Shown one piece after another: positions 1-26,369 of a stretch of 64,000 nucleotides of DNA (the first letter of the stretch is position 1; each line of letters begins with the position of its first letter). The translations under genes and the position numbers were made by a program. The stretch is from a virus. Lineage: Duplodnaviria; Caudoviricetes. The notes beneath the pieces were generated by a model that saw nothing but the letters and a program-made list of their open reading frames with translations, made no database searches and was not told where the DNA came from. The DNA lies in IMG/VR virus record IMGVR_UViG_3300033076_001039, positions 64,110 to 128,109 of that record, one strand, 5' to 3'.

Positions 1-378
1 TATTTTTGCATCATGAAGTAGAAACACTTTAGACATAACTAATGGATTGTAGTTTTCTAATCTACCTTGAGTCGATTCTTTTAACCATCCTGCCAAGTTC
101 TGCCAATTTTCATCTGTCCTAATTTCTTGGATTTTATTAAAGAATTCTGAGTCAGTAAACCAAGACATAGGTCTTAATATGAATTGAGTATTTTCATGAC
201 TCCTTCTTTCAAATACAAATGTTTGAAGTTCTTCATCACCAAAAATAATCATGTTCTCCTCACATTTAAGCAATTGCTCAAACTTATCTAAATAATGTTG
301 GAATGGTCTTGACCATCCTTCGGATAATTGACCTCTACCAATATCCCAAATACCTGTTACTAAAGTTATATTACTCAT
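1..378 (-). CDS. HtrL/YibB (WlaTC)-family putative glycosyltransferase, partial (runs off window edge)
   Basis: Not in ORF track. Manual translation from ATG at 378: MSNITLVTGIWDIGRGQLSEGWSRPFQHYLDKFEQLL...YNPLVMSKVFLLHDAKI; 'ITLVT..WDIGR' and 'Y..+..SK' are typical of the HtrL N-terminus. ATG overlaps the stop of the upstream gene. Confidence 0.7.
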   Translation of the reverse strand, partial: MSNITLVTGIWDIGRGQLSEGWSRPFQHYLDKFEQLLKCEENMIIFGDEELQTFVFERRSHENTQFILRPMSWFTDSEFFNKIQEIRTDENWQNLAGWLKESTQGRLENYNPLVMSKVFLLHDAKI

Positions 379-1252
379 ATATTCTATTAAATTCTTCTAA
401 TATTTTATAAAAACTTTTATTTTGTTCAAACAATTCATCAGTTACACCCGCAGGTGCATTGTCTCTACACCACCAAATGTCAAAGTGTTTACGTTCAAAT
501 AAATCACGATGATTGACATACATTAAAGACATCACGTGTTCTTCGTGTGGTAAACCTTTGTCTTCTTCAATAATTCTTTTTGTGTAATCCTCAAACAAGT
601 TAACAACTGTGTCCCACTTATCTCTATGACCACCAAACATACCACCAATGACGTGGATACTTCTATCGTATTCAGTATACCATTTTCTATCAACAGTACC
701 TGACCAATAGTTACGGTCATTTTCTTTACCAAGGATTAAAAATTTATCACCAGTATCTTCAATAACATTTTTAAGAAAGTCGTTATTAAATAAATTACTT
801 TCATAGTATCTGCCTTGAGGGTGTTGACTTGTCAAATATTTTAAAGGAATTAATCCACAATGAGATAAACCAGCGTCTATCCAATAATAGTAGTCGTAAG
901 ATTTATCTTCATTCCACCACCAATGGAATTTACTATATTGAACCTCAATACATCTATCAGATTTTTTAGTTTCTTCAATATTTTTATACTGATTAATCAA
1001 ATCTTTAAATTTGGTATTACCAATATCAAAAATTTTAAATTCTAATTTCTCGGGTGATATATTATTTTCATTATAAAAAAACTCTTTTAATGAGTCTATT
1101 TCTCTATCTGAAGTATAACACAAAAAATCTGCATCGGTCATTTTTAGTAATGATAGAAGACTATATCTATAGTGTCCTCCTCTACCTACTCGACCTCCGA
1201 ATTCCGTACCATACAAATCGCTGTAAATTGATGTAATAAATTTAACTGACAT
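371..1252 (-). CDS. HtrL/YibB-like putative glycosyltransferase
   Basis: Motifs YSKF, YYWIDAGLSH, IGGMFGG, EEHVM. Start moved to ATG 1252 (MSVKFIT), which overlaps the GT25 stop. Confidence 0.65.
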   Translation of the reverse strand: MSVKFITSIYSDLYGTEFGGRVGRGGHYRYSLLSLLKMTDADFLCYTSDREIDSLKEFFYNENNISPEKLEFKIFDIGNTKFKDLINQYKNIEETKKSDRCIEVQYSKFHWWWNEDKSYDYYYWIDAGLSHCGLIPLKYLTSQHPQGRYYESNLFNNDFLKNVIEDTGDKFLILGKENDRNYWSGTVDRKWYTEYDRSIHVIGGMFGGHRDKWDTVVNLFEDYTKRIIEEDKGLPHEEHVMSLMYVNHRDLFERKHFDIWWCRDNAPAGVTDELFEQNKSFYKILEEFNRIYE

Positions 1253-1985
1253 AATACACTTCTTTATATTCTTTATTGTTTTTAATTTCTTGATTTCTGT
1301 ATTGGTCCATGAATTCACCAGGAATCTTTACAGGACTAAAGACATTCCAGTTATAAGTTTGTAAATAAAAATTATTATACACTCCATCTGAAATATTAGA
1401 CAAATCATTTCCTTGGGGTGCAACTGGTAAAATAGGACAGTAACTTTGGTATTTAGATATTATAAATTGGAAAATAAAATCGTCTATCGCATAAAAATAG
1501 TCTCCACTTGGAAATGCGGTTTCTTTTATTTCGAATAATTTATCGTAAATTGATTCATCAAAAATAATCATATTACATGCGTATATGTCCCGTAAATGTT
1601 CAGGTTTTTCAGGTAAATTAGTCATGTCCAATAACATATCATTATCTGAAGACATATTAATGTGTCTATTTAAAGTCGGTGCCAAATTAAACACACCAAA
1701 TTCTAAACCCTCACATTTTTCTTCTAATTTGGTTAATAAATCTTTGGCATACGGCATAAAACCAATATCATCTTCAATAACCATAACCCGTGGGTATTTA
1801 CGTTCTTTAGCGATTTTAATAATTTCTAAAATTGAACGGGTAATACCCATATAAGAATTGGTATCTATTGCTTTAAAGACTTCATAGTCCCATCCAATAT
1901 ATTCCATCTCCTTTTTAACTTTCTCAAGTCTATCGGGTCTTCTTTCTAAATTGACTACGAATTTAGGTATATTATTGAATTTCAT
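1242..1985 (-). CDS. GT25-family glycosyltransferase
   Basis: N-terminal FVVNLERRPDR and VMVIEDD motifs. Confidence 0.8.
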   Translation of the reverse strand: MKFNNIPKFVVNLERRPDRLEKVKKEMEYIGWDYEVFKAIDTNSYMGITRSILEIIKIAKERKYPRVMVIEDDIGFMPYAKDLLTKLEEKCEGLEFGVFNLAPTLNRHINMSSDNDMLLDMTNLPEKPEHLRDIYACNMIIFDESIYDKLFEIKETAFPSGDYFYAIDDFIFQFIISKYQSYCPILPVAPQGNDLSNISDGVYNNFYLQTYNWNVFSPVKIPGEFMDQYRNQEIKNNKEYKEVYYVS

Positions 1986-3250
1986 TAACTAACGTGATTG
2001 TGAGTTAATCGACCTGTAATTCTATCACACCATCCTTTGGATTCTGAGTGAGGCCATACCACCCAATAAGATGGCATCTCATCAGTTTGGAATTCTCTCC
2101 ATACTTTACAATAACCGTCAGGGTCTCTCATGAAACCTGCAATTTCATTTTTGTCCGCATCTTTACGGAAAAGAGTATCATCTTTATCATTGTGGAATGC
2201 AACAACCCAAAAGTCATAATCAGTTTCAGGTACTTGGGAATACCCAATATCGATACAATGTTTAAACATCATACAGAAACTATCCTTCCATTCTTGTTCA
2301 GTTTCAAAATTGTATGGATTTGGAGGATAATTTTTATCTAAAGTATATTTGTCAATCGCACGTTTTTCAAATAAAATGCCCGCATATTTTTCATAGTCAG
2401 TCAAAGTTCTAACAGGACCAAAACCATAAGGTCCATCATGACCCTCTTGTTTTTCACCATCCATACCAAACAATTTTCTGTTTGTTAAATGTGAATGAGT
2501 ATTTCTTTGACCCCAAGTCTTATCATCATCCCACTGTTTTGTTCTACCCTTACGAGTGTACTCATGGTAAACAACAGGAATGTGTGGGTGGAATAAATCA
2601 TATCCCCAAGTGTAAGCTCTTGCTGCAATTGAAATTTCTTCTCCGTGGAAATAATATTCAGGGTTGTGTTGAACTTCAGTTGAGAATTGTCCTAATGTGA
2701 AACAGAAGTGAGCTGAGTAGAATCTTGCAGTAACAGGTTTTTTCATCTCTTTCCAACCTGGAATTGTTTCAGGTAAGAAGAATACCGCACCTTCAGGAAT
2801 GAATCGGTCAAACACCATTCTCCAAGCATCTGTTGCTCTTCCCGCAGGGTCATTATCGGGGTCAAAAGAAGGAACGTAGCCCGTAAGTAGAGGCTTCTTA
2901 TACCCGTCCTTCTGTAACCCCTTTATCATTTTGATAAGGATGTCATCCCAATCCTTAACAAATCTCATATGAGAATCAATTTGTAATGTATAAGTTTCTC
3001 CTTTATATAGTTGTTGTACTTGATGTCTTGCCCAACATACCCCTTTGGCATCTTGATAAGGAATATCTAATATTCTAAATCTTTTGTCGTTTCTATATTC
3101 GTCTAAATTATCAAACCCATCTTCTTCACTGTATTGTCTTGCAATACCAATAACAAGGTTATTCGGTTTCTTGGCATTTGCCAACATGTCTTTAATGGTG
3201 GGGACCAACTGTGGGTCGCGGTACGATGCAATCTGAACAAAAATTTTCAT
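1985..3250 (-). CDS. GT60-family polypeptide alpha-GlcNAc transferase-like protein (Skp1/mucin GlcNAc-T family), soluble
   Basis: IFVQIASYRD, GVCWAR, LQIDSHMRF (DxH), F.GEEI...ARA.T.G+D motifs. No TM anchor; extra C-terminal domain. Confidence 0.85.
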   Translation of the reverse strand: MKIFVQIASYRDPQLVPTIKDMLANAKKPNNLVIGIARQYSEEDGFDNLDEYRNDKRFRILDIPYQDAKGVCWARHQVQQLYKGETYTLQIDSHMRFVKDWDDILIKMIKGLQKDGYKKPLLTGYVPSFDPDNDPAGRATDAWRMVFDRFIPEGAVFFLPETIPGWKEMKKPVTARFYSAHFCFTLGQFSTEVQHNPEYYFHGEEISIAARAYTWGYDLFHPHIPVVYHEYTRKGRTKQWDDDKTWGQRNTHSHLTNRKLFGMDGEKQEGHDGPYGFGPVRTLTDYEKYAGILFEKRAIDKYTLDKNYPPNPYNFETEQEWKDSFCMMFKHCIDIGYSQVPETDYDFWVVAFHNDKDDTLFRKDADKNEIAGFMRDPDGYCKVWREFQTDEMPSYWVVWPHSESKGWCDRITGRLTHNHVS

Positions 3251-3275
3251 GTAATATTATTTTATATATAAAAAT

Positions 3276-3306
3276 AAAAAACCCTCCACGAAGGTGAAGG
3301 GTTTTT
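3276..3306 (-). terminator. Rho-independent terminator between mucin-like genes and GT60
   Basis: AAAAAACCCT-CCAC-GAAG-GTG-AAGGGTTTTT hairpin with A/T tails. Confidence 0.7.
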
Positions 3307-3327
3307 GTTTATATTAGTTTTGTTTTT

Positions 3328-4434
3328 TTAACATCCGTTAGGGTCACCACTTGTGATTAACCCTGCTCCACCTGTCACTAAGTACCATCCTGTACCGTTA
3401 GAGTAATAACCGTTAGATGCTGGAGTAGTTAATGATGTGTCAGTATAGATTGTATCACCTACGTTAAGAGGGTTTAATGATGGTGACAAGTAGTAGTTTG
3501 TAGTTGAACCTGAACAAGCTGCTGCTGATGAACCAGCATCATAAGATAAACTATACACATAATATCCTACTGTCGGTGTTGGTGAAGGAGTATTTGTTGT
3601 TGTCGCTGTTGGAGTTTGAGTATTAGTTGGAGTTGGTGTTGGAGTTTCTGAACTTGTTGGTGTTGGAGTTAATGTTGGTAATGAAGAACAAAGTGTAAAT
3701 CCTCCTTGTTCAGTACCTGTAGAATCTAAATAAACCACAAGACCTGCATTTGCATAATAACCTGTCATGTCGATTGTTACAGGACCTGTAATTGAATTAA
3801 AGAATTGGGTGTTATTATCAAATATTGGATTTTCAGCATATATTATACCTGAAACTCCGAAATCACATGCAACATTTGAAGTTGAACCTGATGTTACGTT
3901 AAACGCGACTCTAACATTTGTAGGTGTCGGAGTTGGAGTTTCTGTATTAGTTGGAGTTTGAGTGTTAGTAGGGGTTTGAGTGTTAGTTGGTGTTGATGTG
4001 TTAGTAGGGGTTTGAGTATTAGTTGGAGTTTGGGTTGGAGTTTCTGTATTAGTAGGGGTTTGAGTATTAGTAGGGGTTTGAGTATTAGTTGGAGTTTGAG
4101 TATTGGTTGGTGTTTGAGTATTAGTTGGTGTATTAGTTGGGGTTGGTGTGTTAGTTGCCGTATTGCTTGGTGTTGGCGTATTAGTTGGTGTGGTACTTGG
4201 AGTCATTGTTGGTGTTGGTGATGGGTAAACTGGTGGGAATACCTCACTTGTTAACACAACATTACTTTGATAAATTGGCGCGATTGAATACGTACCATTA
4301 ATTAACCAAATATTTTTTGTTTGATTAGGGTTTAATTCTACCTGGTATTCCCACATAGAATCGTCACATCTTCTATAATTAAAATTTATTATAGTTGAAC
4401 CAGTGTTCGTCAAAGTATATTTACTACAAGCCAT
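3328..4434 (-). CDS. Thr/Pro-rich mucin-like virion protein with Cys-containing globular modules
   Basis: (TPTNTQ)n tracts separating three small Cys domains; TATTTATA upstream; no signal peptide. Confidence 0.7.
3945..4130. repeat. 18-bp tandem repeats encoding TPTNTQ
   Basis: Repeated ggggtttgagtattagta / ggagtttgagtgttagta units. Confidence 0.85.
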
Positions 4435-4450
4435 CGTTTTTTTCTTTAAA

Positions 4451-4458
4451 TATAAATA
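4451..4458 (-). promoter_or_regulatory. TATTTATA putative late promoter
   Basis: Coding-strand TATTTATA 16 nt upstream of ATG 4434; one of about 17 similarly placed copies. Confidence 0.6.
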
Positions 4459-4461
4459 GTG

Positions 4462-4674
4462 TTAATTAGGTGGAAATACACCTTCATTTACCAAAACAAC
4501 GCTAGCTCTGAATAACGGTGCAATGGAATAAGTGTCGTTTATCAACCAAATATTTTTAGTTTGATTTGGTTCCAATTCAACTTGATATTCCCACATAGAG
4601 TCGTCACATCTTCTGTAGTTGAAATTTACTTGGGTTGTCCCAGTGTTTGTTAGATTATATTTACTACAAGCCAT
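4462..4674 (-). CDS. Small protein; stand-alone paralog of the N-terminal domain of 3328-4434
   Basis: Both begin [47 protein letters not shown]. Confidence 0.8.
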   Translation of the reverse strand: MACSKYNLTNTGTTQVNFNYRRCDDSMWEYQVELEPNQTKNIWLINDTYSIAPLFRASVVLVNEGVFPPN

Positions 4675-4695
4675 AATTTATTTTTTTAATTTCTA

Positions 4696-6453
4696 TTAGT
4701 CAATTGCAACTATAATTGGTGTTGTTGCATTTATAAATACATTAGTAAATGTGTATGTTGCAGTTGTTGCAGATATACCATATACTGTTTGGTTTAAGTT
4801 CGAATCTCGAACTCTAAGATTATTAAATGCAACGTTATTAGTGGTAACTCCTACCTCAACAGTATATGTTCCACCAAATTGAGTTGTTGAGAATATACTG
4901 TTACCAACAGGAATGTATGGTACTGGGAAATCAGGAGGAGATACGTTAGTTACTAAAACTGAATTTATAGTTATTCCTGATATCTGAGAACCGTTTGTTG
5001 AATCGTTATTTCCAACATATAAAATAACATTTGATATTGTGGATGTTGGAGTAACTGTTGGAGTATTAGTAGGTGTACCTGTTGGAGTTGTGGTATTTGT
5101 TGGTGTTTGAGTATTAGTTGTGGTATTTGTTGGTGTTGGAGTGTTAGTTTCAGTATTTGTTGGTGTGTTAGTAGGTGTTGGTGTAGAGGTGCTTGTTTGT
5201 GTCGGTGTTACAGTTGGTAGACCTGAACAAAGAGATACGATTCCAGCAATACCTAAAGAATCCACGTCAATTACCAAACCTCCGTTGGCATAATATCCTG
5301 TCATATCTATTGTAACAGGACCTGTCGGATTATTGAAGAATTGCGAGTTGTTATCAAATACAGGGTCTTCACCATATATTGTACCCGAATCTCCAAAGTC
5401 ACATGCGATATTTGCAGTTACTCCTGAAGTAATACTAAATGAAGTTCTATTTCTTGTTGGAGTTACAGTATTTGTTGGAGTATTAGTTGGAGTTTCAGTA
5501 TTAGTTGGGGTTTGTGTAGTAGTGTTAGTTGGGGTATTTGTTTGTGTTGGTGTACTTGTGTTAGTTGGTGTAATTGTGTTAGTCGGAGTATTAGTTGGTG
5601 TTGCAGTATTTGTTGGTGTTACACTTGGGGTATTAGTAGGTGTTGAGGTATTTGTTGCGGTATTAGTTGGCGTTGGTGTTTTTGTTGCAGTATTGGTTGG
5701 AGTCGCAGTTGGGGTAGGTAATGGACATCCACCCAAATAAGTTGCACTACCATCTCCGTCAATAATTGTGACAGATTCTGCACAGTAGATAACACTATCA
5801 AGAACATTAACTGTAAATTCAACAATAACTCCTTCACAGTTTCTAACACCAAATCTAGTGTCATTATTAACACCACCAAATAATAGGAATGTTTTACAAA
5901 TTGCGTTTGTTGGTGTTTGAGTATTAGTTGGAGTGTTTGTTGGTGTTGTAGTTGGCGTTGAGGTATTGGTTGGTGTTTGAGTATTAGTTGGCGTATTAGT
6001 CGGAGTTGTTGTTGGTGTTTCAGTGTTAGTCGGTGTGTTTGTTGGTGTTATAGATGGCGTTGGTGTATTACTTGAAGTTGCAGTTGGTGTCAACCCAACG
6101 GTTACTGATGGTGTTGGAGTTGAAGTATTAGTAGGTGTAACTGTAGGTGTTGAAGTGTTAGTTGGTGTTTGTGTTGTAGTTTCCGTAGGTGTTGGACTTA
6201 AACCTGGAGTAACTGTTGGAGTTTGAGTATTTGTTGGTGTTGGACTTGGTGTAGGTCCTGGTACCACAATAGAATAATTATACCCATATAATGGAACATA
6301 ACAGTTATATGTACCGTAGTAATAATCTGAAATATAATTAAAAGGAAATATTTGAGAACCTAAATCAATCGTACCTCCCGTGTCAGGTAAATACGTAACA
6401 TTTGCGGTTTGACCACTCAAATCATCACTTAAAATTCTTACTCCAATTGCCAT
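4696..6453 (-). CDS. Large Thr/Pro mucin-like virion protein
   Basis: Three long TPTNT tracts between globular modules shared with 3328-4434 and 55676-56908. Confidence 0.75.
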   Translation of the reverse strand: MAIGVRILSDDLSGQTANVTYLPDTGGTIDLGSQIFPFNYISDYYYGTYNCYVPLYGYNYSIVVPGPTPSPTPTNTQTPTVTPGLSPTPTETTTQTPTNTSTPTVTPTNTSTPTPSVTVGLTPTATSSNTPTPSITPTNTPTNTETPTTTPTNTPTNTQTPTNTSTPTTTPTNTPTNTQTPTNAICKTFLLFGGVNNDTRFGVRNCEGVIVEFTVNVLDSVIYCAESVTIIDGDGSATYLGGCPLPTPTATPTNTATKTPTPTNTATNTSTPTNTPSVTPTNTATPTNTPTNTITPTNTSTPTQTNTPTNTTTQTPTNTETPTNTPTNTVTPTRNRTSFSITSGVTANIACDFGDSGTIYGEDPVFDNNSQFFNNPTGPVTIDMTGYYANGGLVIDVDSLGIAGIVSLCSGLPTVTPTQTSTSTPTPTNTPTNTETNTPTPTNTTTNTQTPTNTTTPTGTPTNTPTVTPTSTISNVILYVGNNDSTNGSQISGITINSVLVTNVSPPDFPVPYIPVGNSIFSTTQFGGTYTVEVGVTTNNVAFNNLRVRDSNLNQTVYGISATTATYTFTNVFINATTPIIVAID

Positions 6454-6456
6454 GTC

Positions 6457-6464
6457 TATAAATA
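6457..6464 (-). promoter_or_regulatory. TATTTATA putative late promoter
   Basis: 3 nt upstream of ATG 6453. Confidence 0.6.
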
Positions 6465-6479
6465 CTTATTTTTTTTATT

Positions 6480-7043
6480 TTATCCACACACGCCGACATT
6501 AATAATTAGAGTACCTGAAATTTGAATAAATCTCGCACCATTTGATATTGTTGATACAGGGTTAGTTGGTGGTATTGTTAAAACTTCGTTACCATAAACG
6601 TTATCTCCCACTTGTAAATTACCGAATTCTTTTAATGAATATATTGTCACATTTGCAGGATTTGCAAACATGTTTACAGAATTACATACATCTTGATAAT
6701 ATCCACCACCTCTTAAGTTATAACGATAAATTATAACAGGAGTTCGAGTCGGTGTAGGCGTTTGAGTTGGAGTTACTGATGTTTGAGTCGGGGTTGGGGT
6801 TACTGATGTTTGAGTTGGAGTCGGAGTTATTGTCGGAGTTGGTGTATTTGATGGACATACTCCCATATTAACAACGTCCAACGGAGCTGCGTAGTTCTCC
6901 ACATATAATCCATCGGCACACACATAACTGGTTTGCAGTGGGTTTACTCCCGTAACACTGACAATACCAGTACACCCTGTCCATCGATAAAAACCTTCTT
7001 GGACATTATTGTAATTGGTTATTCTATAGTAATAGCAACTCAT
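6480..7043 (-). CDS. Thr/Pro-linker protein with two Cys modules
   Basis: TPTPTQTSV repeats flanked by Cys-containing domains. Confidence 0.7.
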   Translation of the reverse strand: MSCYYYRITNYNNVQEGFYRWTGCTGIVSVTGVNPLQTSYVCADGLYVENYAAPLDVVNMGVCPSNTPTPTITPTPTQTSVTPTPTQTSVTPTQTPTPTRTPVIIYRYNLRGGGYYQDVCNSVNMFANPANVTIYSLKEFGNLQVGDNVYGNEVLTIPPTNPVSTISNGARFIQISGTLIINVGVCG

Positions 7044-7045
7044 TA

Positions 7046-9001
7046 TTATAGTGTTTGATAATATAAATCATTCGCAGGTACACTCAAATAATACAAATCA
7101 TTTCTTGGTATGAATATATAAACCAAATCATTTGCAGGTATTTGAATTCTACAGTTAAGACAATCAGGATTTAATAAATCGTATTTTGCCTGAAGTATTC
7201 TGAAATTATGTTTTATTTGAGAAGCGTTCAATGGTTCTGTATACATTCTAAATGCACTAATATCTCCAATCATACTTCCACCAAAATATTCTTCTAATTT
7301 AACATGTGTTGTTAATCCTGAATATATCGTATGATTTAAATCGTATGTCGTTAAACATTCAGGGTCTTGTTGGTAAACAATTTCATCGATTGTTTCAGGA
7401 CATCCACCTGAGAAAGTTAAATTATCGTGTAGTCCTTGAGTTCCTCCTCCGATTGAAATGTTATATCCGACCCCAATTTGTTTTTCTTTCTCAACATTTA
7501 AAAGTCTTGGAATTATCTCTTCAAAGTTTTCCGTTACCATGAATAACTTTCCATTAACATAAAATTTAAGTGTACCTAATCTATATTTTTGTTCTTCGGT
7601 CCACATGTCGTTAAATGTTACTACTTCAGTCGATGCTGGGTCATAAGGTTGTTCACGAGTTATTGGAGGTTCAATAAGAGTAACACTTCTATTTTCTAAA
7701 GTTGCAAAATAAACATCCTTAACTAACAGACCTAACCCACCTTTATCGTATAAGTCACAGGTGTCAAACCATTCATATCTTTGGAATACCGCATCAATTT
7801 GAACCCAATGTTCGACATTTTGATATGTTGTTCCTGAACAATCATCAAAGATTCCTCTCGTTGAGCACCATTCGGTTAGTGATGTTCCTGTCACATAAGT
7901 TAAACCTGTAAGACAAGTTCCAGTACTTTCACACCCACCAGTTATTCTGTATGTTTTCACACATAATCTTGGACTACCTGTGTCCCCACTTAATCTTAAT
8001 GATAGGGCATTTGAAACCCCATCATATAACGGGTCTTTTTCAGGGTACTTGGCAGTTGTGGTACAATCACAAGGACATCCACAAGTACAAGTTGTTATTG
8101 TCCCACCTGAAGGTTGGTAAACCTGCATACAATCCGAAGATGTGTTTGCGGTACTCGCACAACCACAAGTGTGCATACAAGTCAAACCTGATGTAACTCT
8201 TGTATATCCCGTATCTTGAACAGGACTACCATCAGCATAATGATAGAATTTATTCTCGGCTCTTGCCCCCATATAAAAGAATGTTCCTTTATTATCAGGG
8301 TATCTTGCGTTTAATCCAACAGACGTATCACCTGTCCATCTATATTTTAATAAAAACTCTGCGGTCCAACCTAACGGAACTCTTTGTGGGAATACTTGAT
8401 AGTCATATCCCGCCAATTTATAAAACCCTTGGAAAAACCCTCCATTTAATCTCGCAACATATCCAACGTCGCCACCAGTATTCACATAAGATAAATTATA
8501 CGAATACGAATTATCATTCCATAAACGATTTGAGGTTGTTGTAAATCCTGTGATAGGGTGAAGTTTCATTCTCCTATCATATTTATATCTACTGTATTTG
8601 TCTGAATTATTGGTATATAAACCTGTAGTGATTTGAATAGTTTCTCCTGACATGTTTTGAACTAAACCATTATCAATACCTGTCAATCCTACATCACATA
8701 AATTTGTTACGATTGGACAAAAGTTAGGGTCAACATCATCAGGGTTCCAATAATTTTCTGAAACAATAGTTTGATAATCAAAAGAACATGCAGATGTTTG
8801 ACAAAGAGTTGTTCCCGAACTATTGAAATCAAATTTAAATGGCATTCTATTACCATCGTTCACACCAATCAAAAATGGTGAAAAAACGACTTCTTGGTCA
8901 TAATCCCTCTCGTCCGATGCTAAACAAATATCGGTTACTTCGTTCACAGGTTTTATCCCCCATCTACGAAAATTATACTGATTAATATTCTGATATGCCA
9001 T
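7046..9001 (-). CDS. Putative structural protein with LamG/concanavalin-like fold, Cys-rich
   Basis: C-terminal LKFYVNG...ISIGG...IGDISAFRMYTEPLNASQI.HNF is typical of LamG-like phage proteins; many TG/SG dipeptides. Confidence 0.55.
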   Translation of the reverse strand: MAYQNINQYNFRRWGIKPVNEVTDICLASDERDYDQEVVFSPFLIGVNDGNRMPFKFDFNSSGTTLCQTSACSFDYQTIVSENYWNPDDVDPNFCPIVTNLCDVGLTGIDNGLVQNMSGETIQITTGLYTNNSDKYSRYKYDRRMKLHPITGFTTTSNRLWNDNSYSYNLSYVNTGGDVGYVARLNGGFFQGFYKLAGYDYQVFPQRVPLGWTAEFLLKYRWTGDTSVGLNARYPDNKGTFFYMGARAENKFYHYADGSPVQDTGYTRVTSGLTCMHTCGCASTANTSSDCMQVYQPSGGTITTCTCGCPCDCTTTAKYPEKDPLYDGVSNALSLRLSGDTGSPRLCVKTYRITGGCESTGTCLTGLTYVTGTSLTEWCSTRGIFDDCSGTTYQNVEHWVQIDAVFQRYEWFDTCDLYDKGGLGLLVKDVYFATLENRSVTLIEPPITREQPYDPASTEVVTFNDMWTEEQKYRLGTLKFYVNGKLFMVTENFEEIIPRLLNVEKEKQIGVGYNISIGGGTQGLHDNLTFSGGCPETIDEIVYQQDPECLTTYDLNHTIYSGLTTHVKLEEYFGGSMIGDISAFRMYTEPLNASQIKHNFRILQAKYDLLNPDCLNCRIQIPANDLVYIFIPRNDLYYLSVPANDLYYQTL

Positions 9002-9009: not shown

Positions 9010-9038
9010 GATAAATACCTTATGAGCTAGTATTTATA
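9010..9038. promoter_or_regulatory. Back-to-back divergent TATTTAT promoters
   Basis: ATAAATA at 9011-9017 (serves minus gene 9001) and TATTTATA at 9031-9038 (serves plus gene 9055). Confidence 0.65.
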
Positions 9039-11868: not shown

Positions 11869-13083
11869 ATGTCAAAAATCAAAGTTTTAGTAGTCCCATC
11901 CGATAGAACAGGTGTGGGTAAATTTAGGTCTGTGGACCCTCACGTATTCTTACAGAATTTATACCCTGACGATTTCCATGTAGATATCGTATATGAACCA
12001 CCATATGATGACTTTTCATTTTGGCAAAACTATCAAATAGTTGCATTCCATAGAAGTATTGGACCCGACTTTGAACAGGCAAATAGATTAATCCAAATGT
12101 TAAATTCATTAGGTGTAATTACTATTTGTGATATTGACGATTATTGGATGCCAGGTAAAGAGCACCCAATTCACGATATAATTCGATTCAATAAAATTAA
12201 CGAGAAAATTGTTGCAAATCTTAAAGTAGCATCTTATGTTACCACCACAACAAATTTATTCGCGAATGAAATTAAAAAATTGAATAAGAATGTTGTTGTG
12301 TTCCCAAATGCGATTAATCCAAATGAACCACAGTTCAAAGAACCAACATTAGAATCAGACAGACTTAGAATTGGATGGTTAGGGGGTTCTTCCCACTTAC
12401 ACGATTTACAGTTGTTAGACTCTCCTTTAGCTAAAATTACACACTTAAAAGATAAATTACAATTTGTTCTTTGTGGATTCGATACACGAGGTACTGTAAC
12501 TGAAATCAATCAACAAACAGGTGAACATAAAAAGAGAGATATTCTTCCACACGAAACCGTTTGGGCTCAATATGAAAAAATATTCACTCAAAATCATTCT
12601 TTGGTCTCTGAGGACTACAAGAAATATTTGTTAAAATATACTCAAGAAAAATACCCGAATGAACTTGATGAATCATACGTAAGAGTTTGGACACAACCCG
12701 TAACATCATACGCTAAAAACTACTCAAAGTTTGACGTGTCATTGGCACCAATCAAGAACACCATGTTTAACCGTATGAAATCACAACTTAAAGTTATTGA
12801 GGCAGGTTTCTATAAAAAGGCAATTATTGCTTCCGATTTAGGTCCATATACTTTAGATTTGAAACATTGTTTAGACCATGGTAATTTTGTTGACGGTAAT
12901 GCAATGTTAGTTGATGAAAATAGAAACCACTCTGATTGGGCAAAGTATATCAAAAAACTTGTTGAAAACCCTAACATGGTTAAAGATATGGGTGAAAGAC
13001 TATATGAGACAGTTAAAGACACATATGATTTAAATGTCGTAACCAAAAACAGAGCAGAATTTTATAAATCTTTAATCAAATAA
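11869..13083 (+). CDS. GT-B (GT4-like) glycosyltransferase
   Basis: DIDDYW, IGWLGGSSH, DVSLAP...FN.MKSQLKVIEAG...IASD.GPY. Confidence 0.85.
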   Translation: MSKIKVLVVPSDRTGVGKFRSVDPHVFLQNLYPDDFHVDIVYEPPYDDFSFWQNYQIVAFHRSIGPDFEQANRLIQMLNSLGVITICDIDDYWMPGKEHPIHDIIRFNKINEKIVANLKVASYVTTTTNLFANEIKKLNKNVVVFPNAINPNEPQFKEPTLESDRLRIGWLGGSSHLHDLQLLDSPLAKITHLKDKLQFVLCGFDTRGTVTEINQQTGEHKKRDILPHETVWAQYEKIFTQNHSLVSEDYKKYLLKYTQEKYPNELDESYVRVWTQPVTSYAKNYSKFDVSLAPIKNTMFNRMKSQLKVIEAGFYKKAIIASDLGPYTLDLKHCLDHGNFVDGNAMLVDENRNHSDWAKYIKKLVENPNMVKDMGERLYETVKDTYDLNVVTKNRAEFYKSLIK

Positions 13084-13084
13084 T

Positions 13085-13540
13085 ATGGATTCAAAAAAAG
13101 GTAGAATAGGATTCACCGCAGGTAACTTTGATTTACTACATCCTGGTTACATATACACATTCGAAGCAGCTAAAGAACATTGTGATTATTTCATCGTGTT
13201 CTTACAGAGAGACCCTTCATTAACAAGGTTCACCAAATATAAACCTGTAGTTCCATTATATGAACGTTATAGAACATTAATGTCTATCAAATACATTGAT
13301 GAGGTTGTTTGTTATGACGATGAAGATGATTTGTTAAGAATGATTGAATTCTATAAACCTGATGTAAGAATTCTTGGAGATGATTACATAGGAAAAAGAT
13401 TTACAGGCGACCATTTACCTATTGATGTCGTTTATACAACTCGTTCTCACGGATGGTCAACTACAAAAATCAAAGACTTAATTACAATACAAACTTTAAA
13501 ACAAAATCCCGAAATAACTAATTTAGTAGAAAATGATTAA
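13085..13540 (+). CDS. Cytidylyltransferase (TagD/RfaE-like)
   Basis: GNFDLLHPGY (HxGH variant), G.DY and R.HGWSTT motifs. Confidence 0.85.
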   Translation: MDSKKGRIGFTAGNFDLLHPGYIYTFEAAKEHCDYFIVFLQRDPSLTRFTKYKPVVPLYERYRTLMSIKYIDEVVCYDDEDDLLRMIEFYKPDVRILGDDYIGKRFTGDHLPIDVVYTTRSHGWSTTKIKDLITIQTLKQNPEITNLVEND

Positions 13541-14234
13541 TATTCCTTTACACAAAATTTTATTCTTAGACATCGAAACCGTTGGGGTACACCCCGATTG
13601 GGAAACTTTAGTTAAAGAAAATGAACCTCTGTCATTCCAATTTGAACATTATTTTGATTGGTTCCAAAAAAGATTTCCCGAAGACGCCGATAAAGGTGTT
13701 GGTCAAATGTTTGTTAACAGGTCTGCATTGGTGCCGGAATTTGCAAGAATTGCCTGTGTTAGTGTAGCATTTGTTACGGAAAAAGGTGAAGTTAAAATGC
13801 AATCATTTAGTAATGAGAATGAGAAGACAATGTTATTAGAAGTTCAAAAACTTCTTCATAGAGTTGGTGAACTTGGATTCTTTCTATGTGGTCATAATGT
13901 TAAAGGATTTGATATTCCAATGTTAGCCAAACGTATGATTATGAATGGAATTATGCCACCAAAAATTTTACCAGGTCATGACACTAAACCATGGGAAATT
14001 AAAGCCTTGGATACTAAAGAAGTTTGGCAATACGGAGGGTACGGTTCAATCGCATCCCTTGAATTGATGTGTGTTTGTTTAGGTGTTGAATCATCTAAAA
14101 CAATGGAAGTTACTGGTAATAAAGTTCATGAGGCGTTTTGGGTGAAAAAAGATATTGAGGGTATTGTAAAATACTGTGAAAAAGACGTATCTGTATTGAT
14201 TGATGTTATAAAAAAATTAATCGCATTAAAATAA
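13533..14234 (+). CDS. DnaQ/PolB-type 3'-5' exonuclease
   Basis: LDIET (ExoI), GHNVKGFDIP (ExoII), YCEKD (ExoIII). Confidence 0.85.
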   Translation: MINIPLHKILFLDIETVGVHPDWETLVKENEPLSFQFEHYFDWFQKRFPEDADKGVGQMFVNRSALVPEFARIACVSVAFVTEKGEVKMQSFSNENEKTMLLEVQKLLHRVGELGFFLCGHNVKGFDIPMLAKRMIMNGIMPPKILPGHDTKPWEIKALDTKEVWQYGGYGSIASLELMCVCLGVESSKTMEVTGNKVHEAFWVKKDIEGIVKYCEKDVSVLIDVIKKLIALK

Positions 14235-14854
14235 TGGAAAATTTAAATAAGATGGGGTTGAACTCCGAAATGTACGACGAAATCCTAAAACAATTTGAAA
14301 AAATTAAATCTGAAGCAGGTATTGAACCTGATGATGAATATCAAAAAGAATTAGAGGATTTGTTAGGTCTTGGACTTGAGGAATTGGAGGATGAGATTTA
14401 CCAACAAGCCATGACTAAACATGTTAAGGTAGAAATGACTGCTGCCGATGCAGTTTTTCCAAAATACGCATACCCTTCTGATTCAGGTTTTGATTTACAT
14501 TCAACACAAGATTTAGAAATTGGACCCTTTGGTAGAATACTTGTGCCAACAGGTATTAAAGTTTCATTTCCTGAAGGATATGAGATACAAGTTAGACCTA
14601 AAAGTGGTTTAGCCATCAAACAAGGATTGACTGTTCTTAATACCCCTGGTACTGTTGACCAAGGTTATACAGGAGAAATTCAAGTAATCGTATTTAATAC
14701 TAATAACCATACGGTGGTAATACCAAAAGGTATGAAAGTTGCACAAGCAGTTTTATGTCCTGTAGTTAATGGGAAATATGTTAATTTTGAAAATGTAAGT
14801 TCAATTGAGGATAAGGATAGAGGTGATAACGGATTTGGTAGTACAGGAATTTAA
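14234..14854 (+). CDS. dut: Trimeric dUTPase with acidic N-terminal extension
   Basis: SGFDL, RPKSGLA, GTVDQGYTGE, RGDNGFGSTG motifs. Confidence 0.95.
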   Translation: MENLNKMGLNSEMYDEILKQFEKIKSEAGIEPDDEYQKELEDLLGLGLEELEDEIYQQAMTKHVKVEMTAADAVFPKYAYPSDSGFDLHSTQDLEIGPFGRILVPTGIKVSFPEGYEIQVRPKSGLAIKQGLTVLNTPGTVDQGYTGEIQVIVFNTNNHTVVIPKGMKVAQAVLCPVVNGKYVNFENVSSIEDKDRGDNGFGSTGI

Positions 14855-14865
14855 CACATAACAAA

Positions 14866-16494
14866 ATGATTACAGTAGGATATTCAACAAGAGAACACAA
14901 CCCAAAATTTATTGAATACTTGAAAAAAAGTTCAGGGTTCAAAAAAATTGAGGTGATTGAAAAAATAAATAATGGTGAGAAGTCATTATCTGAAACATAT
15001 AATGAGATATTAAATGAATCTAAAACTGATATCGTAGTATTGTGTCACGACGACATTTATTTCGATACTTCAAGTTGGTTTCATAAAATTAAAACTCACT
15101 TTGAAAAAAGTGATTTTGGTATTTTAGGAGTTGCTGGCACAACCAACATGCCCGAAACTGGTAGATGGTGGGACAATAGAAAAACCATGATTGGAATTGT
15201 TAATCATGAAAATGAAGGTAAAAAATGGACTTCAAAATATTCTGATGACCACGGTAAGTCTATTAAACCTACAGTTATTGTTGACGGTTTGTTTATTGCA
15301 CTAAGTAAATCAAGAATCAAACACACATTTGATGAAGATTTTAAAGGTTTCCACTTTTATGACATCGCATTTTGTTATAGAAACTATTTGGAAAATGTTA
15401 AAGTTGGTGTTATTAGTAATGTTAGAATTACACACAAATCAATAGGTCAAACAAACCAACAATGGGAAGATAATAGACAATTCTTTGTTGAGAAATATGG
15501 TCAGTCTTTACCAACTAAAATTCCTTTTGATAAAAATAAAAGATTGAAGGTATTACTGTCTTGTATTTCATTTAGAAATTTCACAGGTTCAGAACTTTAC
15601 GTATTTGAATTGGCCAAAAGTCTAATTAAGTTAAATTGTAGTGTTACCGTTCTTTCTCAAATTGGGGGTCCTGTAACAGACATGGCAAAAAAACTTGGTA
15701 TTAAGTGTGTTTCATTTGAAAATGCACCAGGGTTTAAACTTGGGGACGGTCAGTGGGGTATGAATACACCTGAAGGATTTAAACCTTCAACACCAAATAT
15801 GTTATATCGGGTTTCTGATGTTGATTATGATATTGTTCATTTCCAACACAAACCAGTTGCAGAACGTATATTAAATATGTACCCCGAATTACCAAAAATT
15901 TCGGCAATACACTCTGAAGTTATTTCTTTAGAAGACCCTGTTACTGACCCAACGATTAAAAAATACATTGCAATTAGACCAGAAATTAAAGAACATATTG
16001 TTAATAATTTTGAAATACCTGAAGAAATGGTTGAGGTAATATACAATCCTGTTGATAATGAAAAATTTCAATCAAAGGATGTTACTGAAGAAAATTATGT
16101 GTTGTTTGTTGGTACAATCGACTATTTGAGAAAAGAAGCAATATTAGACCTAATCGAATATACAAGGGAGATTGGAAAAGAATTATGGTTGGTTGGTGAG
16201 AATAATGGTAATTATTTGGAAAATGTCCTGTTAGAAGACCATGTGAAACATTTCCCATCAACTTGGAATGTAGAGAACTTTATATTAAAATCTTACGAAA
16301 CCGCAGGAATTCAATTGGGTAGAACAACTATTGAAAGTTGGATGTGTGGTAAATCAAGTTGGATATATAAAGTGGATAAGGGAGGTTTTATCTTATCTAA
16401 AGAAAAATACAATCCACCAAGTGATATTGAAAAATATTATGCGATGAATGTTGCGCAACAAATAAAAGATGAATATATTAAAATTTTAGAATGA
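14866..16494 (+). CDS. Bifunctional glycosyltransferase (GT-A N-terminal + GT-B C-terminal)
   Basis: CHDD and FDE.F.GFHFYD (GT2-like), then TGSELY..ELA and YNPVD (GT4-like). Confidence 0.75.
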   Translation: MITVGYSTREHNPKFIEYLKKSSGFKKIEVIEKINNGEKSLSETYNEILNESKTDIVVLCHDDIYFDTSSWFHKIKTHFEKSDFGILGVAGTTNMPETGRWWDNRKTMIGIVNHENEGKKWTSKYSDDHGKSIKPTVIVDGLFIALSKSRIKHTFDEDFKGFHFYDIAFCYRNYLENVKVGVISNVRITHKSIGQTNQQWEDNRQFFVEKYGQSLPTKIPFDKNKRLKVLLSCISFRNFTGSELYVFELAKSLIKLNCSVTVLSQIGGPVTDMAKKLGIKCVSFENAPGFKLGDGQWGMNTPEGFKPSTPNMLYRVSDVDYDIVHFQHKPVAERILNMYPELPKISAIHSEVISLEDPVTDPTIKKYIAIRPEIKEHIVNNFEIPEEMVEVIYNPVDNEKFQSKDVTEENYVLFVGTIDYLRKEAILDLIEYTREIGKELWLVGENNGNYLENVLLEDHVKHFPSTWNVENFILKSYETAGIQLGRTTIESWMCGKSSWIYKVDKGGFILSKEKYNPPSDIEKYYAMNVAQQIKDEYIKILE

Positions 16495-17273
16495 ACCGAA
16501 TAGTTGATTACGAAAACCTATCAAAAAAAATCCAAACATGGATTATTGATTATGCGGATACGCATAATATTAAAACATTAGTTGTTGGTGTTTCAGGTGG
16601 AATTGATTCCGCAGTCGTGTCAACATTATGTGCATTAACGGGTATTGATACAATTGCCGTTGGGATGCCGATTAACTCCAATTCCGATAACACAAAATTA
16701 TCGAAGAAACAATTAGAATACCTTTCCATGTCATTTGGGATTAATACTGATGAAATAGATTTAAGTTCAATTTATAATTCATTTAATAAATTGATGTCAC
16801 CGAATTTTTCGTCTGATTTGGGATTTGCCAATAGTAAATCAAGACTTCGTATGATTACTTTATATCAAATTGCGTCAAGTTTAGGCGGTATTGTTGTTGG
16901 TACAGGAAATAAAGTTGAGGACTTTGGTGTTGGATTTTATACAAAATATGGTGATGGTGGTGTGGATATTTCACCTATCGCAGATTTATACAAATCAGAA
17001 GTAAGGGAACTTGGACGTTATTTAGGTGTACCTCAAGAAATTATTGATGCCGAACCTACTGATGGTTTATGGGATGACAATAGAGTTGATGAGACTCAAA
17101 TAGGTGCAACATATGAAGAACTAGAATGGGCCATGGAATATGGACAGAGTAAATCAGTTTACACTGAAAAAGAATATAATATATTAAACATATATCAAAA
17201 CTTTAATCAAAAAAATAAACATAAAATGGTTCCAATCCCAATTTTTGATTTAAAAGAAAACGAAATTATATGA
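16491..17273 (+). CDS. nadE: NH3-dependent NAD+ synthetase
   Basis: GVSGGIDS, N.KSRLRM, GTGNKVE, FYTKYGDGG, PTDGLW, DE.QIG.TY. Confidence 0.93.
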   Translation: MNRIVDYENLSKKIQTWIIDYADTHNIKTLVVGVSGGIDSAVVSTLCALTGIDTIAVGMPINSNSDNTKLSKKQLEYLSMSFGINTDEIDLSSIYNSFNKLMSPNFSSDLGFANSKSRLRMITLYQIASSLGGIVVGTGNKVEDFGVGFYTKYGDGGVDISPIADLYKSEVRELGRYLGVPQEIIDAEPTDGLWDDNRVDETQIGATYEELEWAMEYGQSKSVYTEKEYNILNIYQNFNQKNKHKMVPIPIFDLKENEII

Positions 17274-18430
17274 AAATAGGTGTTATTGGTGCGGGAAGAC
17301 TTGGTCTAACATTTGCACTACTTTGTGAAAAAAATGGGTACGACGTATTAGTATCTGACGTGAGAGAAGATTATGTTTTTAATCTTAATCAAAAAATTTG
17401 TATAACTAATGAACCTTTAGTCCAATCAATGTTATTGGACACGACTAAATTTAGTGCAACAACTAATAATATTGAAGTAATTGAAAATTCAGACATTATA
17501 TTCATTTTTGTTGCCACTCCGTCAACTTTAGACGGTAACTATGATACCGCCAAAGTTTTTGAAGTGGTGTCTGATTTCTACACCGCAAATAGTTTAGACG
17601 TTCAACTGTACGGTAAAAAAGTTATTGTAGGATGTACAACAAATCCTGGTGATACAGAACAAGTACAGCAAAGATTGAATATGTTTAATATCCAAGTCGC
17701 ATATAATCCTGAATTTATTGCACAAGGTGAAATTGTAAAAGGTCTTGAAGAGTCTGACATAGTTTTAATAGGTACCAATTATACTGAATTAGGTAATGAA
17801 CTAATTGAAATTTATAAGAGAATCCAAACTACTTCAGTAAACGCCTACGTAATGTCCCCTAAAGCCGCAGAATTAACTAAAATCGGTATTAATTGTTTCT
17901 TAACTACTAAAATTAGTTATGCAAACATGATGGGTGATATTATGGTTAAAGCTGGTTTGGAAGATGAAATCAATATGGTTTTAACCGCAATAGGTGGAGA
18001 TACCAGAGTTGGTAAAAAATACATGAAATATGGGTTTGGGTTTGGGGGACCATGTCTTCCTAGAGATAATAGAGCTTTGGGGTACTACGCAAAAAATTTA
18101 GGTATGGAATTAAACTTACCATTAACTGTGGATAATTTTAATAAAGAACATGCTAATTTCTTAAAAGAATACTACATCAGCAAAAACCCCGATAAATCAG
18201 TACCATTTGTCATGAACTATATCACATACAAAAAAGGTACGGATATTACCGAAGAATCACAACAGTTCCAATTATGTATCGATTTATTAACTGAAGGTTA
18301 TTCGGTCAACGTTATAGAAATTGATGCTGTTTCCAAACAATTAAATTCATTAAGTGAATCTTACAATGGTAGACTGAGGTTTTTTAAACCAGGTACAAAT
18401 CCTGAAGGATTTAAAATTAATTTACAGTAA
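17270..18430 (+). CDS. UDP-glucose/GDP-mannose dehydrogenase family protein
   Basis: GAGRLG, NPEF, AELTK, KISYAN, GFGGPCLPRD (catalytic Cys). Confidence 0.9.
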   Translation: MKIGVIGAGRLGLTFALLCEKNGYDVLVSDVREDYVFNLNQKICITNEPLVQSMLLDTTKFSATTNNIEVIENSDIIFIFVATPSTLDGNYDTAKVFEVVSDFYTANSLDVQLYGKKVIVGCTTNPGDTEQVQQRLNMFNIQVAYNPEFIAQGEIVKGLEESDIVLIGTNYTELGNELIEIYKRIQTTSVNAYVMSPKAAELTKIGINCFLTTKISYANMMGDIMVKAGLEDEINMVLTAIGGDTRVGKKYMKYGFGFGGPCLPRDNRALGYYAKNLGMELNLPLTVDNFNKEHANFLKEYYISKNPDKSVPFVMNYITYKKGTDITEESQQFQLCIDLLTEGYSVNVIEIDAVSKQLNSLSESYNGRLRFFKPGTNPEGFKINLQ

Positions 18431-22102: not shown

Positions 22103-22109
22103 TTTTAAA

Positions 22110-26368: not shown

Positions 26369-26369
26369 T

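Follow-up and report, generated by a model that had tools for sequence, protein, structure and literature searches.

A jumbo phage gene set that joins a GT60-family glycosyltransferase with Thr-Pro tract proteins, its candidate acceptors

We analysed a 64,000-nucleotide stretch of DNA, hereafter the window. It makes up the latter half of a 128-kb fragment that derives from a roughly 300-kb jumbo phage of the T4 superfamily. The phage is uncultured and stems from freshwater. Since Bacteroidota MAG bins hold related contigs, its host may be a member of the Bacteroidota, which is uncertain. Terminase, portal and major head protein are encoded at 42320-51938. Positions 1-9001, where the ORF calls place all genes named below at the given coordinates on the minus strand, contain a set of Thr-Pro (TP) tract, GT60, GT25-like and HtrL-like genes; the presence of this set, noted in a preliminary description of the DNA, is confirmed.

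The late block begins with the gene for a 651-aa Cys-rich protein with 24 Cys (7046..9001), which has no match in Pfam or PHROG. LamG_3 (PF13385), taken from Atlas features, is a weak lead only and the C-terminal part is possibly LamG/ConA-like; the homologue in a complete 309-kb relative (G001) bears a 144-aa TP tract. Next come a 187-aa protein (6480..7043) built of an N-domain, a 42-aa TP tract and a C-domain, its domains recurring in 47-48 of 80 related loci, and a 585-aa modular protein (4696..6453) in which four TP tracts link five small globular beta-rich domains. The latter's tracts total 268 aa, with 127 Thr and 56 Pro, and a beta-sandwich is a weak lead only for its C-terminal domain. 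A 70-aa stand-alone N-domain copy (4462..4674) ends where a TP tract would start and is 82% identical over 60 aa to the N-domain of the protein encoded by the next gene (3328..4434). That 368-aa modular protein has two TP tracts, in the order N-domain, 110-aa (TPTNTQ)n tract, middle domain, TP tract and C-domain, the middle domain being 70% identical to one domain of the 585-aa protein. A fourth TP protein of 410 aa, 184 of them in tracts, is encoded on the minus strand at 55676..56908, about 3.7 kb past the terminase end of the head and packaging genes, and a fifth lies on the same contig outside the window. Thus the three co-oriented TP-tract genes initially described in positions 1-9001 and the one at 55676 were all recovered.

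The tracts measure 42-268 aa per protein, consist of 40-47% Thr and 21-26% Pro with charged residues nearly absent, and are coded by imperfect tandem repeats of 18 nt, those of the 585-aa and 368-aa genes included. Applied to random bacterial DNA totalling 800 kb and to four related phages totalling 859 kb, the same detector found no TP-tract ORF; the occurrence of such tracts in the window is far beyond chance.

The GT60 gene (1985..3250, minus strand) encodes a soluble GT-A glycosyltransferase of 421 aa that matches PF11397 'GlcNAc' with an E-value of 9e-68 and a score of 229.7 bits, where the cut-off is 21, and phrog_24687 at 1.6e-166, which settles the family identity proposed earlier. Residues D92, H94, E204, E205 and H229 are invariant across 48 homologues; the DxH motif, read beforehand as DSH, is the invariant D92-S93-H94. 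In the structure model (pLDDT 94.6) the catalytic domain takes up about residues 1-305; the C-terminal domain behind it, roughly 110 aa long and beta-rich, matched no fold in structure searches. Each of the 29 best-scoring PDB entries is a GT27 polypeptide GalNAc-transferase (Z 19.2-22.5, rmsd 3.2-3.7 A over 252-278 residues; best match Z 22.5, 3.3 A over 268 residues), the next class reaching at most Z 17.9. The order, with GT27 on top, was the same when 48,161 representative chains were searched exhaustively, so the proposed kinship to these mucin-type initiators holds at the level of the nearest solved structures. GT27 and GT60 have the DxH motif and a polypeptide Ser/Thr O-glycosylation mode in common (PMC7185993). 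A PF13640-type prolyl hydroxylase was found neither in the source contig nor in the complete relative. By this indirect argument Thr, the acceptor originally suggested, or Ser fits better than hydroxyproline, and a Skp1-type route is unlikely.

A GT25-like gene for a putative transferase of 247 aa (1242..1985, minus strand) overlaps the GT60 stop with its start by one base. The gene is present as described, yet its assignment depends on a 39-residue match to PF01755/GT25 (E 7e-9, 36.2 bits; residues 6-44 on profile positions 2-40 of 199). It is a dispensable, variable accessory: 51 of the 80 close loci have it, and none of the distant ones does. Further along lie H315 (371..1252, minus strand), a protein of about 293 aa of no named family, and a 558-aa member of the HtrL_YibB family, of which the window encodes the initial 126 aa (1..378, minus strand) and whose remainder lies before position 1. 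The latter matches PF09612 with E 3e-11 for the 126-aa piece and 3.8e-21 for the whole. H315 has no match in Pfam, NCBIfam or PHROG and is only weakly HtrL-like (pairwise E 3e-4), so that of the two HtrL-like genes initially named one is a clear member. By tblastn H315 matches were found beside GT60 in loci L003, L004, L088, L101-L104, L118 and L121; it is a conserved GT60 companion in Xanthomonas phages and some bacteria. Of the 80 close loci, 76 have the 558-aa protein beside GT60, and the same pairing occurs in a marine contig, in 28 bacterial loci and in the two Xanthomonas phages. The conserved core is thus GT60 plus the 558-aa HtrL protein, not GT25.

Between the last TP gene (that of the 368-aa protein) and GT60 sits an intrinsic-terminator-like hairpin (3277..3306, minus strand) with a 13-bp stem, a 4-nt loop and a T run. 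The TP genes do lie directly upstream of GT60; they do not form one operon with it, since this terminator intervenes. A promoter-like motif, TATTTAT, lies at 9011..9017 (minus strand), 10 nt upstream of the 651-aa gene, and recurs 5, 18 and 15 nt upstream of the genes starting at 6453, 4434 and 56908, respectively. It is common to these TP genes and the head genes; of its 30 copies, 14 fall within the 35 nt before a co-oriented start, where 0.43 would be expected. No TATTTAT precedes the GT60 start. The strong terminator between the TP block and GT60, together with the lack of the late motif at GT60, speaks against the reading that we favour below.

Divergent from the TP/GT60 block, a run of sugar-nucleotide and transferase genes, mixed with nucleotide/NAD genes and all encoding soluble products, extends over 11869..32478 on the plus strand. 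It comprises GT4-like, cytidylyltransferase, GT2_5+GT4 fusion, UDP-sugar dehydrogenase, GT2, GT11 and GT10 genes, as well as two methyltransferases, a PglD-like acetyltransferase, a DegT aminotransferase, a Zn-dehydrogenase, an epimerase/dehydratase, GT1 and a further GT2. This run likely supplies sugars and extension enzymes. No transmembrane segment or signal peptide was detected in any glycosyltransferase or TP protein, in agreement with the solubility of GT60 and the missing signal peptides of the TP proteins claimed beforehand. Bac_transf, Glycos_transf_4 and a Wzx-type flippase (PF01943) are absent from both the source contig and the complete relative, and the latter has no lipid-carrier priming enzymes. 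Together these results show no phage-encoded route for export of a glycan among the families covered.

Co-occurrence of GT60 and TP tracts was evaluated in phages and bacteria and was positive in both. The GT60-bearing phages contain 5 (the partial source contig, G000), 6 (G001), 11 (Xoo-sp13) and about 17 (XacN1) TP-tract ORFs, whereas Mel-JY01, immuto, CBB and RM378, which lack PF11397, contain none in 859 kb (Fisher p = 0.029 for four versus four genomes, phylogeny ignored). In Xoo-sp13 and XacN1 replication genes surround the GT60 module and none of the TP genes adjoins it, and in G001 the largest TP genes are about 80 kb from GT60. The presumed TP substrates are therefore not confined to GT60 neighbours and TP genes are scattered in relatives: the enzyme is encoded with its presumed substrates in the same genomes, as had been proposed, while the idea of neighbours as the sole substrates is not supported. 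More distant phages, with GT60 47-49% identical, keep PT/TP-linker proteins adjoining the enzyme (L170, L109, L086/L087). Among bacterial GT60 loci 24 of 80 have a TP-tract ORF, about 11 of these 24 directly adjoining, compared with 0 of 40 random 20-kb control regions, drawn only from 10 GT60-bearing genomes and totalling 800 kb (p = 1.8e-5); restricted to the same 10 genomes the count is 4 of 10 loci versus 0 of 40 (p = 9e-4). The TP proteins encoded near GT60 in bacteria come from families unrelated to one another (PqqD-TP, Tat-signal-like TP, LamG-PT, FN3-PT). The remaining 56 of 80 loci have no TP ORF within 8 kb.

As TP-tract proteins adjoin an enzyme akin to the initiators of animal mucin chains, the phage probably sugar-coats its own proteins. 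On evidence that is indirect and correlative, we consider it fairly probable that soluble GT60 glycosylates the TP tracts of the phage's own modular proteins, that HtrL extends the sugars and that the products are late virion appendages. GT60, a soluble, Mn-type (DxH), retaining-type GT-A enzyme, would act in the cytoplasm of the infected cell, most likely moving HexNAc, probably GlcNAc, from a UDP-sugar to Thr (and Ser) hydroxyls of the tracts. The 558-aa HtrL protein and H315 would then extend the sugar, and so would variable accessories, among them the GT25-like gene and transferases from the neighbouring run, which would also produce unusual nucleotide sugars. The TP genes share their promoter-like motif with the head genes, and their products are probably late virion parts, presumably surface-exposed appendages or decorations, with small Cys-containing beta-domains arranged as beads on extended, sugar-coated linkers. 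Of the mucin-glycosylation proposal as first made, family, fold, solubility and co-occurrence thus stand; the single operon, the neighbour-only substrates and a core role of GT25 are not supported as worded. In the literature we found no paper describing the GT60/TP-tract pairing.

PT linkers may serve as spacers without glycosylation, which counts against our reading. The GT60/HtrL module and the sugar run could instead build a glycan on another acceptor, be it the capsid or some other virion protein, a protein of the host, or a molecule that is soluble or bound to lipid. On this reading the TP tracts would be plain flexible spacers, and the co-occurrence would arise from shared ancestry or lifestyle (large appendage-rich virions, surface-protein-rich bacteria). 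The terminator and differing promoter context, the location of the module among replication genes in the Xanthomonas phages and by DNA polymerase B here, the 56 bacterial loci without a TP neighbour and a Gemmatimonadaceae cluster with a Bac_transf priming enzyme plus GT4, as in polysaccharide loci, are in its favour. We nevertheless regard it as rather unlikely: a common background does not explain the tracts, as neither the 800 kb of random regions of the same bacterial genomes nor the four relatives without GT60 contain them, the TP proteins near GT60 come from unrelated families, the nearest solved structures of GT60 act on Thr/Ser-Pro-rich peptides, and the phage lacks a lipid-carrier priming enzyme or Wzx-type flippase.

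Alternatively, the enzymes could remodel envelope components of the infected host, be they LPS, capsule or exopolysaccharide, for instance as a superinfection block, relying on lipid carriers and export machinery of the host. That GT25 and HtrL_YibB are named for LPS-core-region genes and that the content of the sugar run resembles O-antigen and capsule loci agrees with such a role, but it seems improbable given that fragment and complete relative lack a priming transferase, a Wzx-type flippase and any membrane-anchored glycosyltransferase, that the TP-tract association is left without a reason, and that glycoproteins are present in XacN1 virions themselves. Least credible, and in our judgement very improbable, is glycosylation by GT60 of modified bases in phage DNA as anti-restriction hypermodification. 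DNA polymerase B, NUDIX and RNase H genes do adjoin the module in the Xanthomonas phages, as DNA polymerase B does in the source contig, and the window has a dUTPase/dCTP-deaminase-like gene. A ThyA/hydroxymethylase homologue was, however, not found in the fragment, the one of the complete relative matches thymidylate synthase families, and more than 10 transferases, fucosyltransferase-like ones included, exceed any known DNA glycan. To our knowledge no GT60 or GT27 member acts on DNA.

Characterized protist GT60/PF11397 enzymes act on Skp1 hydroxyproline (Gnt1 of Dictyostelium and Toxoplasma) or on Thr of mucin-like repeats (Trypanosoma cruzi and Dictyostelium). The phage enzyme resembles them, at family level, in its high PF11397 score and DxH motif, in being soluble like Gnt1 and in having Thr/Pro-rich candidate acceptors in its own genome. 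It differs by being phage-encoded with bacterial relatives, by its additional C-terminal domain of about 110 aa and by its pairing with HtrL; unlike in the Skp1 system, there is no PF13640 prolyl hydroxylase. GT27, the animal and Toxoplasma initiators of mucin-type O-glycosylation, give the best structural matches to the catalytic domain, have DxH as well and act on Thr/Ser-Pro-rich peptides, although sequence identity is only 12-15% and they carry a ricin-type lectin domain and reside in the Golgi as type II membrane proteins, whereas phage GT60 has no membrane anchor. The closest phage parallels are XacN1 and Xoo-sp13, with homologues of GT60 (45-50% identical; ORF334 in XacN1), of the 558-aa HtrL protein (39-41%) and of H315, and with 11 to about 17 TP-tract proteins, one annotated 'mucin-16-like'. 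XacN1 virions show at least two Schiff-stained glycoprotein bands without protein identity, which is a hint in favour of our reading, and the authors drew no link from ORF334 to GT60 or TP proteins (PMC5852040). Unlike in the source phage, the XacN1/Xoo-sp13 module has a carbamoyltransferase and lacks GT25.

Mycobacteriophages modify capsid and tail-tube proteins with their own transferases, which like those proposed here are phage-encoded and cytoplasmic and are believed to attach O-linked sugars to structural proteins of the same phage. They belong to other families, and their acceptors are short C-terminal capsid and tail-tube extensions, in contrast to separate modular proteins with TP repeats of 40-270 aa, backed by a sugar-gene run of roughly 20 kb. 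In the serine-rich-repeat adhesins of Gram-positive bacteria, a Ser/Thr repeat protein is similarly O-GlcNAc-primed in the cytoplasm, extended by neighbouring soluble transferases and then displayed; there GtfA/GtfB, a GT4 (GT-B fold) pair, is the primer for the extension enzymes, export occurs via the accessory Sec system, and the system is bacterial, not viral. Giant viruses also glycosylate themselves, as in the capsid glycans of chloroviruses and the fibrils of mimivirus. Chlorovirus glycosylation is cited by the XacN1 paper as well (PMC5852040). Giant viruses resemble the present case in that virus-encoded sugar-nucleotide synthesis and cytoplasmic transferases coat the particle without host secretion, and differ from it in infecting eukaryotes and in using other transferase families and acceptors.

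All genes named in the preliminary description were found, on the minus strand. Its assignment of the 421-aa gene at 1985-3250 to GT60 was confirmed with the PF11397 profile (229.7 bits, cut-off 21), which aligned in two stretches, profile positions 2-43 and 93-351 of 352. Residues D92, H94, E204, E205 and H229 do not vary among 48 aligned homologues (33-92% identical); D92-S93-H94 constitutes the DxH motif and we infer H229 to be the third metal ligand. A DxH metal-binding motif, replacing DxD, separates GT27 and GT60 from other GT-A families (PMC7185993). AlphaFold2 with the 48-homologue alignment yielded a model with pLDDT 94.6 (37 for a single-sequence fold). Its PDB fold matches at ranks 1-29 were all GT27 polypeptide GalNAc-transferases (Z 19.2-22.5), headed by GalNAc-T2 with an rmsd of 3.3 Å over 268 residues; generic GT-A enzymes scored Z 17.9 or less. 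A Foldseek-independent search of 48,161 representative chains returned the same order, GT27 enzymes taking the top two places, and the modelled enzyme is predicted to have a GT-A fold nearest that of GT27. The fold matches included no solved structure of GT60 or Gnt1, which does not count against family membership. Sequence and profile searches against PDB chains gave nothing meaningful, and the beta-rich domain at residues ~310-421 lacked a match in the PDB fold searches. More than 7,000 proteins were homologous to the enzyme at E <= 1e-5 in one search, and the proteins P0122, P0123, P0124, P0134 and P0151 are giants of 1,600-2,500 aa, each with 4-5 GT60-like stretches.

The four Thr-Pro (TP) proteins of the window, three encoded upstream of GT60 (187, 585 and 368 aa) and one at 55676-56908, and a fifth from another part of the contig contain mucin-like tracts of 42-268 residues with 40-47% Thr, 21-26% Pro and nearly no charge. 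The DNA of these tracts consists of imperfect 18-nt repeats, hence the (TPTNTQ)n unit. The tracts serve as linkers between small globular domains (55-110 aa), of which most contain paired Cys and which are shuffled between the paralogues; for the 585-aa protein's C-terminal domain the Atlas search gave generic beta-sandwich matches alone, with a poor model. A 70-aa free-standing copy of a TP-protein N-domain is encoded at 4462-4674 and ends just at the point at which a TP tract would follow; either repeat loss, with this copy as a leftover, or a separately made domain could explain it. In a close relative (L078, 3-896) a 298-aa open frame upstream of GT60, running off the locus end, contains 46% Ser and 31% Gly, and Gly-rich paralogues and this Ser/Gly frame occupy the place where long TP proteins would stand. 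Judging by this locus, the low-complexity type of the cassette upstream of GT60 is exchangeable.

The source IMG/VR virus record comprises 128 kb, with a completeness of 43% according to CheckV; its bases 64110-128109 make up the window. A gp23-type major head protein, portal and large terminase are encoded at 42320-51938; the closest cultured capsids, those of Microcystis phage Mel-JY01 and Flavobacterium phage immuto, are ~42% identical, with Rak2-like and Xanthomonas jumbo phages further off. One relative, G001, is a complete genome of 309,177 bp whose GT60 is 86% identical to that of the window. Because of these head, portal and terminase genes, the distance to cultured capsids and the complete relative, the gene content identifies the phage as an uncultured T4-superfamily jumbo phage. 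It belongs to a large freshwater clade (431 IMG/VR contigs). Neither megablast of 12 kb of the window nor tblastn of the 651-aa Cys-rich protein, the first of the TP block, matched cultured phages. Copies 60-70% identical occur in MAG bins, mostly of Bacteroidota, a hint at the host that goes no further than these bins. The major head protein itself (42320-44131, minus strand) has 603 aa; the gp23-type profile spans residues 276-580 only and tblastn to cultured phages aligns 53-60% in two pieces, which leaves a big N-terminal part or insertion without explanation.

The last TP gene is separated from GT60 by a 13-bp hairpin with a T run. The motif TATTTAT is not enriched in overall frequency, but of 30 copies 14 stand no more than 35 nt before a gene start of the same orientation (0.43 expected). 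The genes so preceded include the portal and others of the head region, three of the four in the TP-block cluster, and the fourth TP gene; the motif is lacking before GT60 and the sugar-gene run. Given the hairpin and this distribution, the TP genes resemble late structural genes, and the enzymes seem to form a unit of their own, which reads GT60, GT25-like, ~293-aa H315, 558-aa HtrL protein, a 135-aa gene and DNA polymerase B. The divergent sugar-gene run (11869-32478, plus strand) encodes at least seven further transferases and sugar-nucleotide enzymes among nucleotide and NAD genes. A PolB-type 3'-5' exonuclease, a dUTPase/dCTP-deaminase-like protein, NAD synthase and PhoH are found among the sugar genes at 13533-17273 and 28997-29746 (plus strand).

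The proposed partners of GT60 fared less uniformly. The gene described as GT25 scores 36.2 bits against PF01755 (cut-off 24), but only 39 residues (6-44) align, to profile positions 2-40 of 199; it has no PHROG or NCBIfam match and is confined to the close clade. Two HtrL-like genes had been proposed, of which the 558-aa protein, whose gene extends past the edge of the window, is a clear HtrL_YibB member, aligning to PF09612 over profile positions 2-253 of 267 with 76.3 bits (threshold 24.1), but H315 lacks a profile match and is related at a pairwise E of 3e-4. With 81.5 against a cut-off of 264.9 the 558-aa protein falls far under the NCBIfam equivalog threshold and is therefore a family member, not a YibB equivalent. 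Its homologues adjoin GT60, often immediately downstream, in 76 of the 80 close loci and 28 bacterial ones, as well as in a marine contig and both cultured Xanthomonas jumbo phages, Xoo-sp13 and XacN1 (tblastn); H315 recurs beside GT60 less often. Gene order thus compared indicates GT60 plus the 558-aa HtrL protein as the conserved core of the module. In the Xanthomonas phages (locus 11390-13706) a 765-aa carbamoyltransferase stands between GT60 and the H315/HtrL homologues, which hints at carbamoylated sugars. A marine TARA contig (L085, 296-5864) carries two tandem GT60 genes, then an FkbM methyltransferase, a weak sulfotransferase match and a 568-aa HtrL protein, suggesting methylated or sulfated glycans.

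In close relatives (80 loci, GT60 86-97% identical) S/T/P-rich genes stand directly upstream of GT60 wherever the DNA is long enough, varying greatly in number and length; this is synteny, not independent evidence. The apparent exceptions (L040, L078, L035, L057-L059) mostly dissolve, as TP, Ser/Thr/Pro- or Ser/Gly-rich genes had been missed by the first filter. PT/TP-linker proteins still adjoin the enzyme in further phages with GT60 47-49% identical (L170, L109, L086/L087). The expected co-occurrence was borne out among phages, in a comparison of only 4 versus 4 genomes: TP tracts are found in 4/4 GT60-positive and 0/4 GT60-negative phages (p = 0.029), the 859 kb of four related phages without PF11397 containing no TP-tract ORF. 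Among bacteria, 24 of 80 GT60 loci have a TP-tract ORF (~11 of these ORFs directly adjacent), against 0/40 random 20-kb regions drawn from just ten GT60-bearing genomes (p = 1.8e-5). The bacterial neighbours are mutually unrelated. TP tails occur on a PqqD-domain protein and on small Tat-signal-like proteins, and PT linkers in proteins that bear LamG, FN3 or hydrolase domains. TP frequency did not differ between bacterial loci that have the HtrL partner and those that lack it (12/35 vs 17/56), and this comparison is therefore not used as evidence. Bacterial GT60 genes are accompanied by PqqD-like peptide-chaperone and ScmC-type cassette genes in L088 (14-4673) and by PqqD-like genes, an HprK-related kinase, an NTP_transf_5 fusion and Bac_transf in L103 (4233-10972); in Gemmatimonadaceae the PqqD protein itself bears the TP tail.

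The co-occurrence with TP genes lends indirect support to a putative alpha-GlcNAc transfer from UDP-GlcNAc to polypeptide Thr/Ser or hydroxyproline. The Skp1-type hydroxyproline route is less likely, since a search for the prolyl hydroxylase family PF13640, made in phage DNA, found none in the 128-kb fragment or the 309-kb relative. The most likely mechanism, and in our view a reasonably probable one, is that the phage modifies its own TP proteins by mucin-type O-glycosylation in the cytoplasm: GT60 would prime them there, and the 558-aa HtrL partner with accessory transferases would extend the sugar. The main rival, in which another acceptor receives the glycan and the TP tracts are unmodified spacers, appears unlikely beside the association in phages and bacteria. 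Xoo-sp13 and XacN1 have no TP gene next to the module, but genome-wide they contain 11 and ~17 TP-tract ORFs respectively, one annotated 'mucin-16-like'. In G001, four large TP-tract genes (332-822 aa) form a second cluster at 72786-88747, ~80 kb away from GT60. The GT60 homologue of XacN1 is ORF334, one of two transferases listed for that phage, and its virions show at least two Schiff-stained glycoprotein bands, the identity of which is not given and which the authors suggest are made by phage enzymes (PMC5852040).

Two further readings concern other targets of the sugar genes. Envelope remodelling would draw on the many transferases of the run, and we hold it improbable: membrane segments and signal peptides are absent from the TP proteins, module enzymes and sugar-run proteins, and a priming transferase and flippase (PF02397, PF00953, PF01943) from both the fragment and complete G001. 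By these three families a lipid-linked Wzx/Wzy-type pathway appears not to be phage-encoded, and host enzymes may serve. DNA glycosylation, with nucleotide genes lying among the sugar genes, has still less to recommend it and would be very surprising; a search for makers of hydroxymethyl pyrimidines that covered ThyA-type PF00303 found none in the fragment, and the single PF00303 homologue of G001 best matches thymidylate synthase PHROGs.

Cytoplasmic O-glycosylation of the TP proteins is directly testable, because two phages in culture, XacN1 and Xoo-sp13, have both the module and numerous TP proteins; glycoprotein staining of XacN1 virions is already on record, and the raw proteomics data of that phage are public (PXD008065). 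To our knowledge glycosylated phage-particle proteins are known from few cases only, and the limited literature searched contained no paper linking GT60/PF11397 to phages or TP-repeat proteins and no description of mucin-like phage proteins with transferases. We give roughly even chances to the wider proposal that GT60 and HtrL partners constitute a widespread, undescribed cytoplasmic mucin-type O-glycosylation of prokaryotes and phages, with which phages would clothe hypervariable TP appendages in a viral 'glycocalyx' and bacteria their secreted TP-tail proteins. If so, Thr-Pro repeats are primed by an enzyme of mucin-initiator descent in a very abundant group of freshwater jumbo phages and in many bacteria, and the freshwater clade and cultured Xanthomonas jumbo phages would wear a coat of complex glycans, with a bearing on protease resistance, sticking to hosts or slime, and escape from recognition. 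It would equally bear on the annotation of metagenomic 'auxiliary' sugar genes and on the origin of eukaryotic mucin glycosylation. Mucin-type O-glycosylation is regarded as a eukaryotic trait; the eukaryotic GT27/GT60 mucin initiators would gain a counterpart in prokaryotes or viruses that follows the same acceptor logic.
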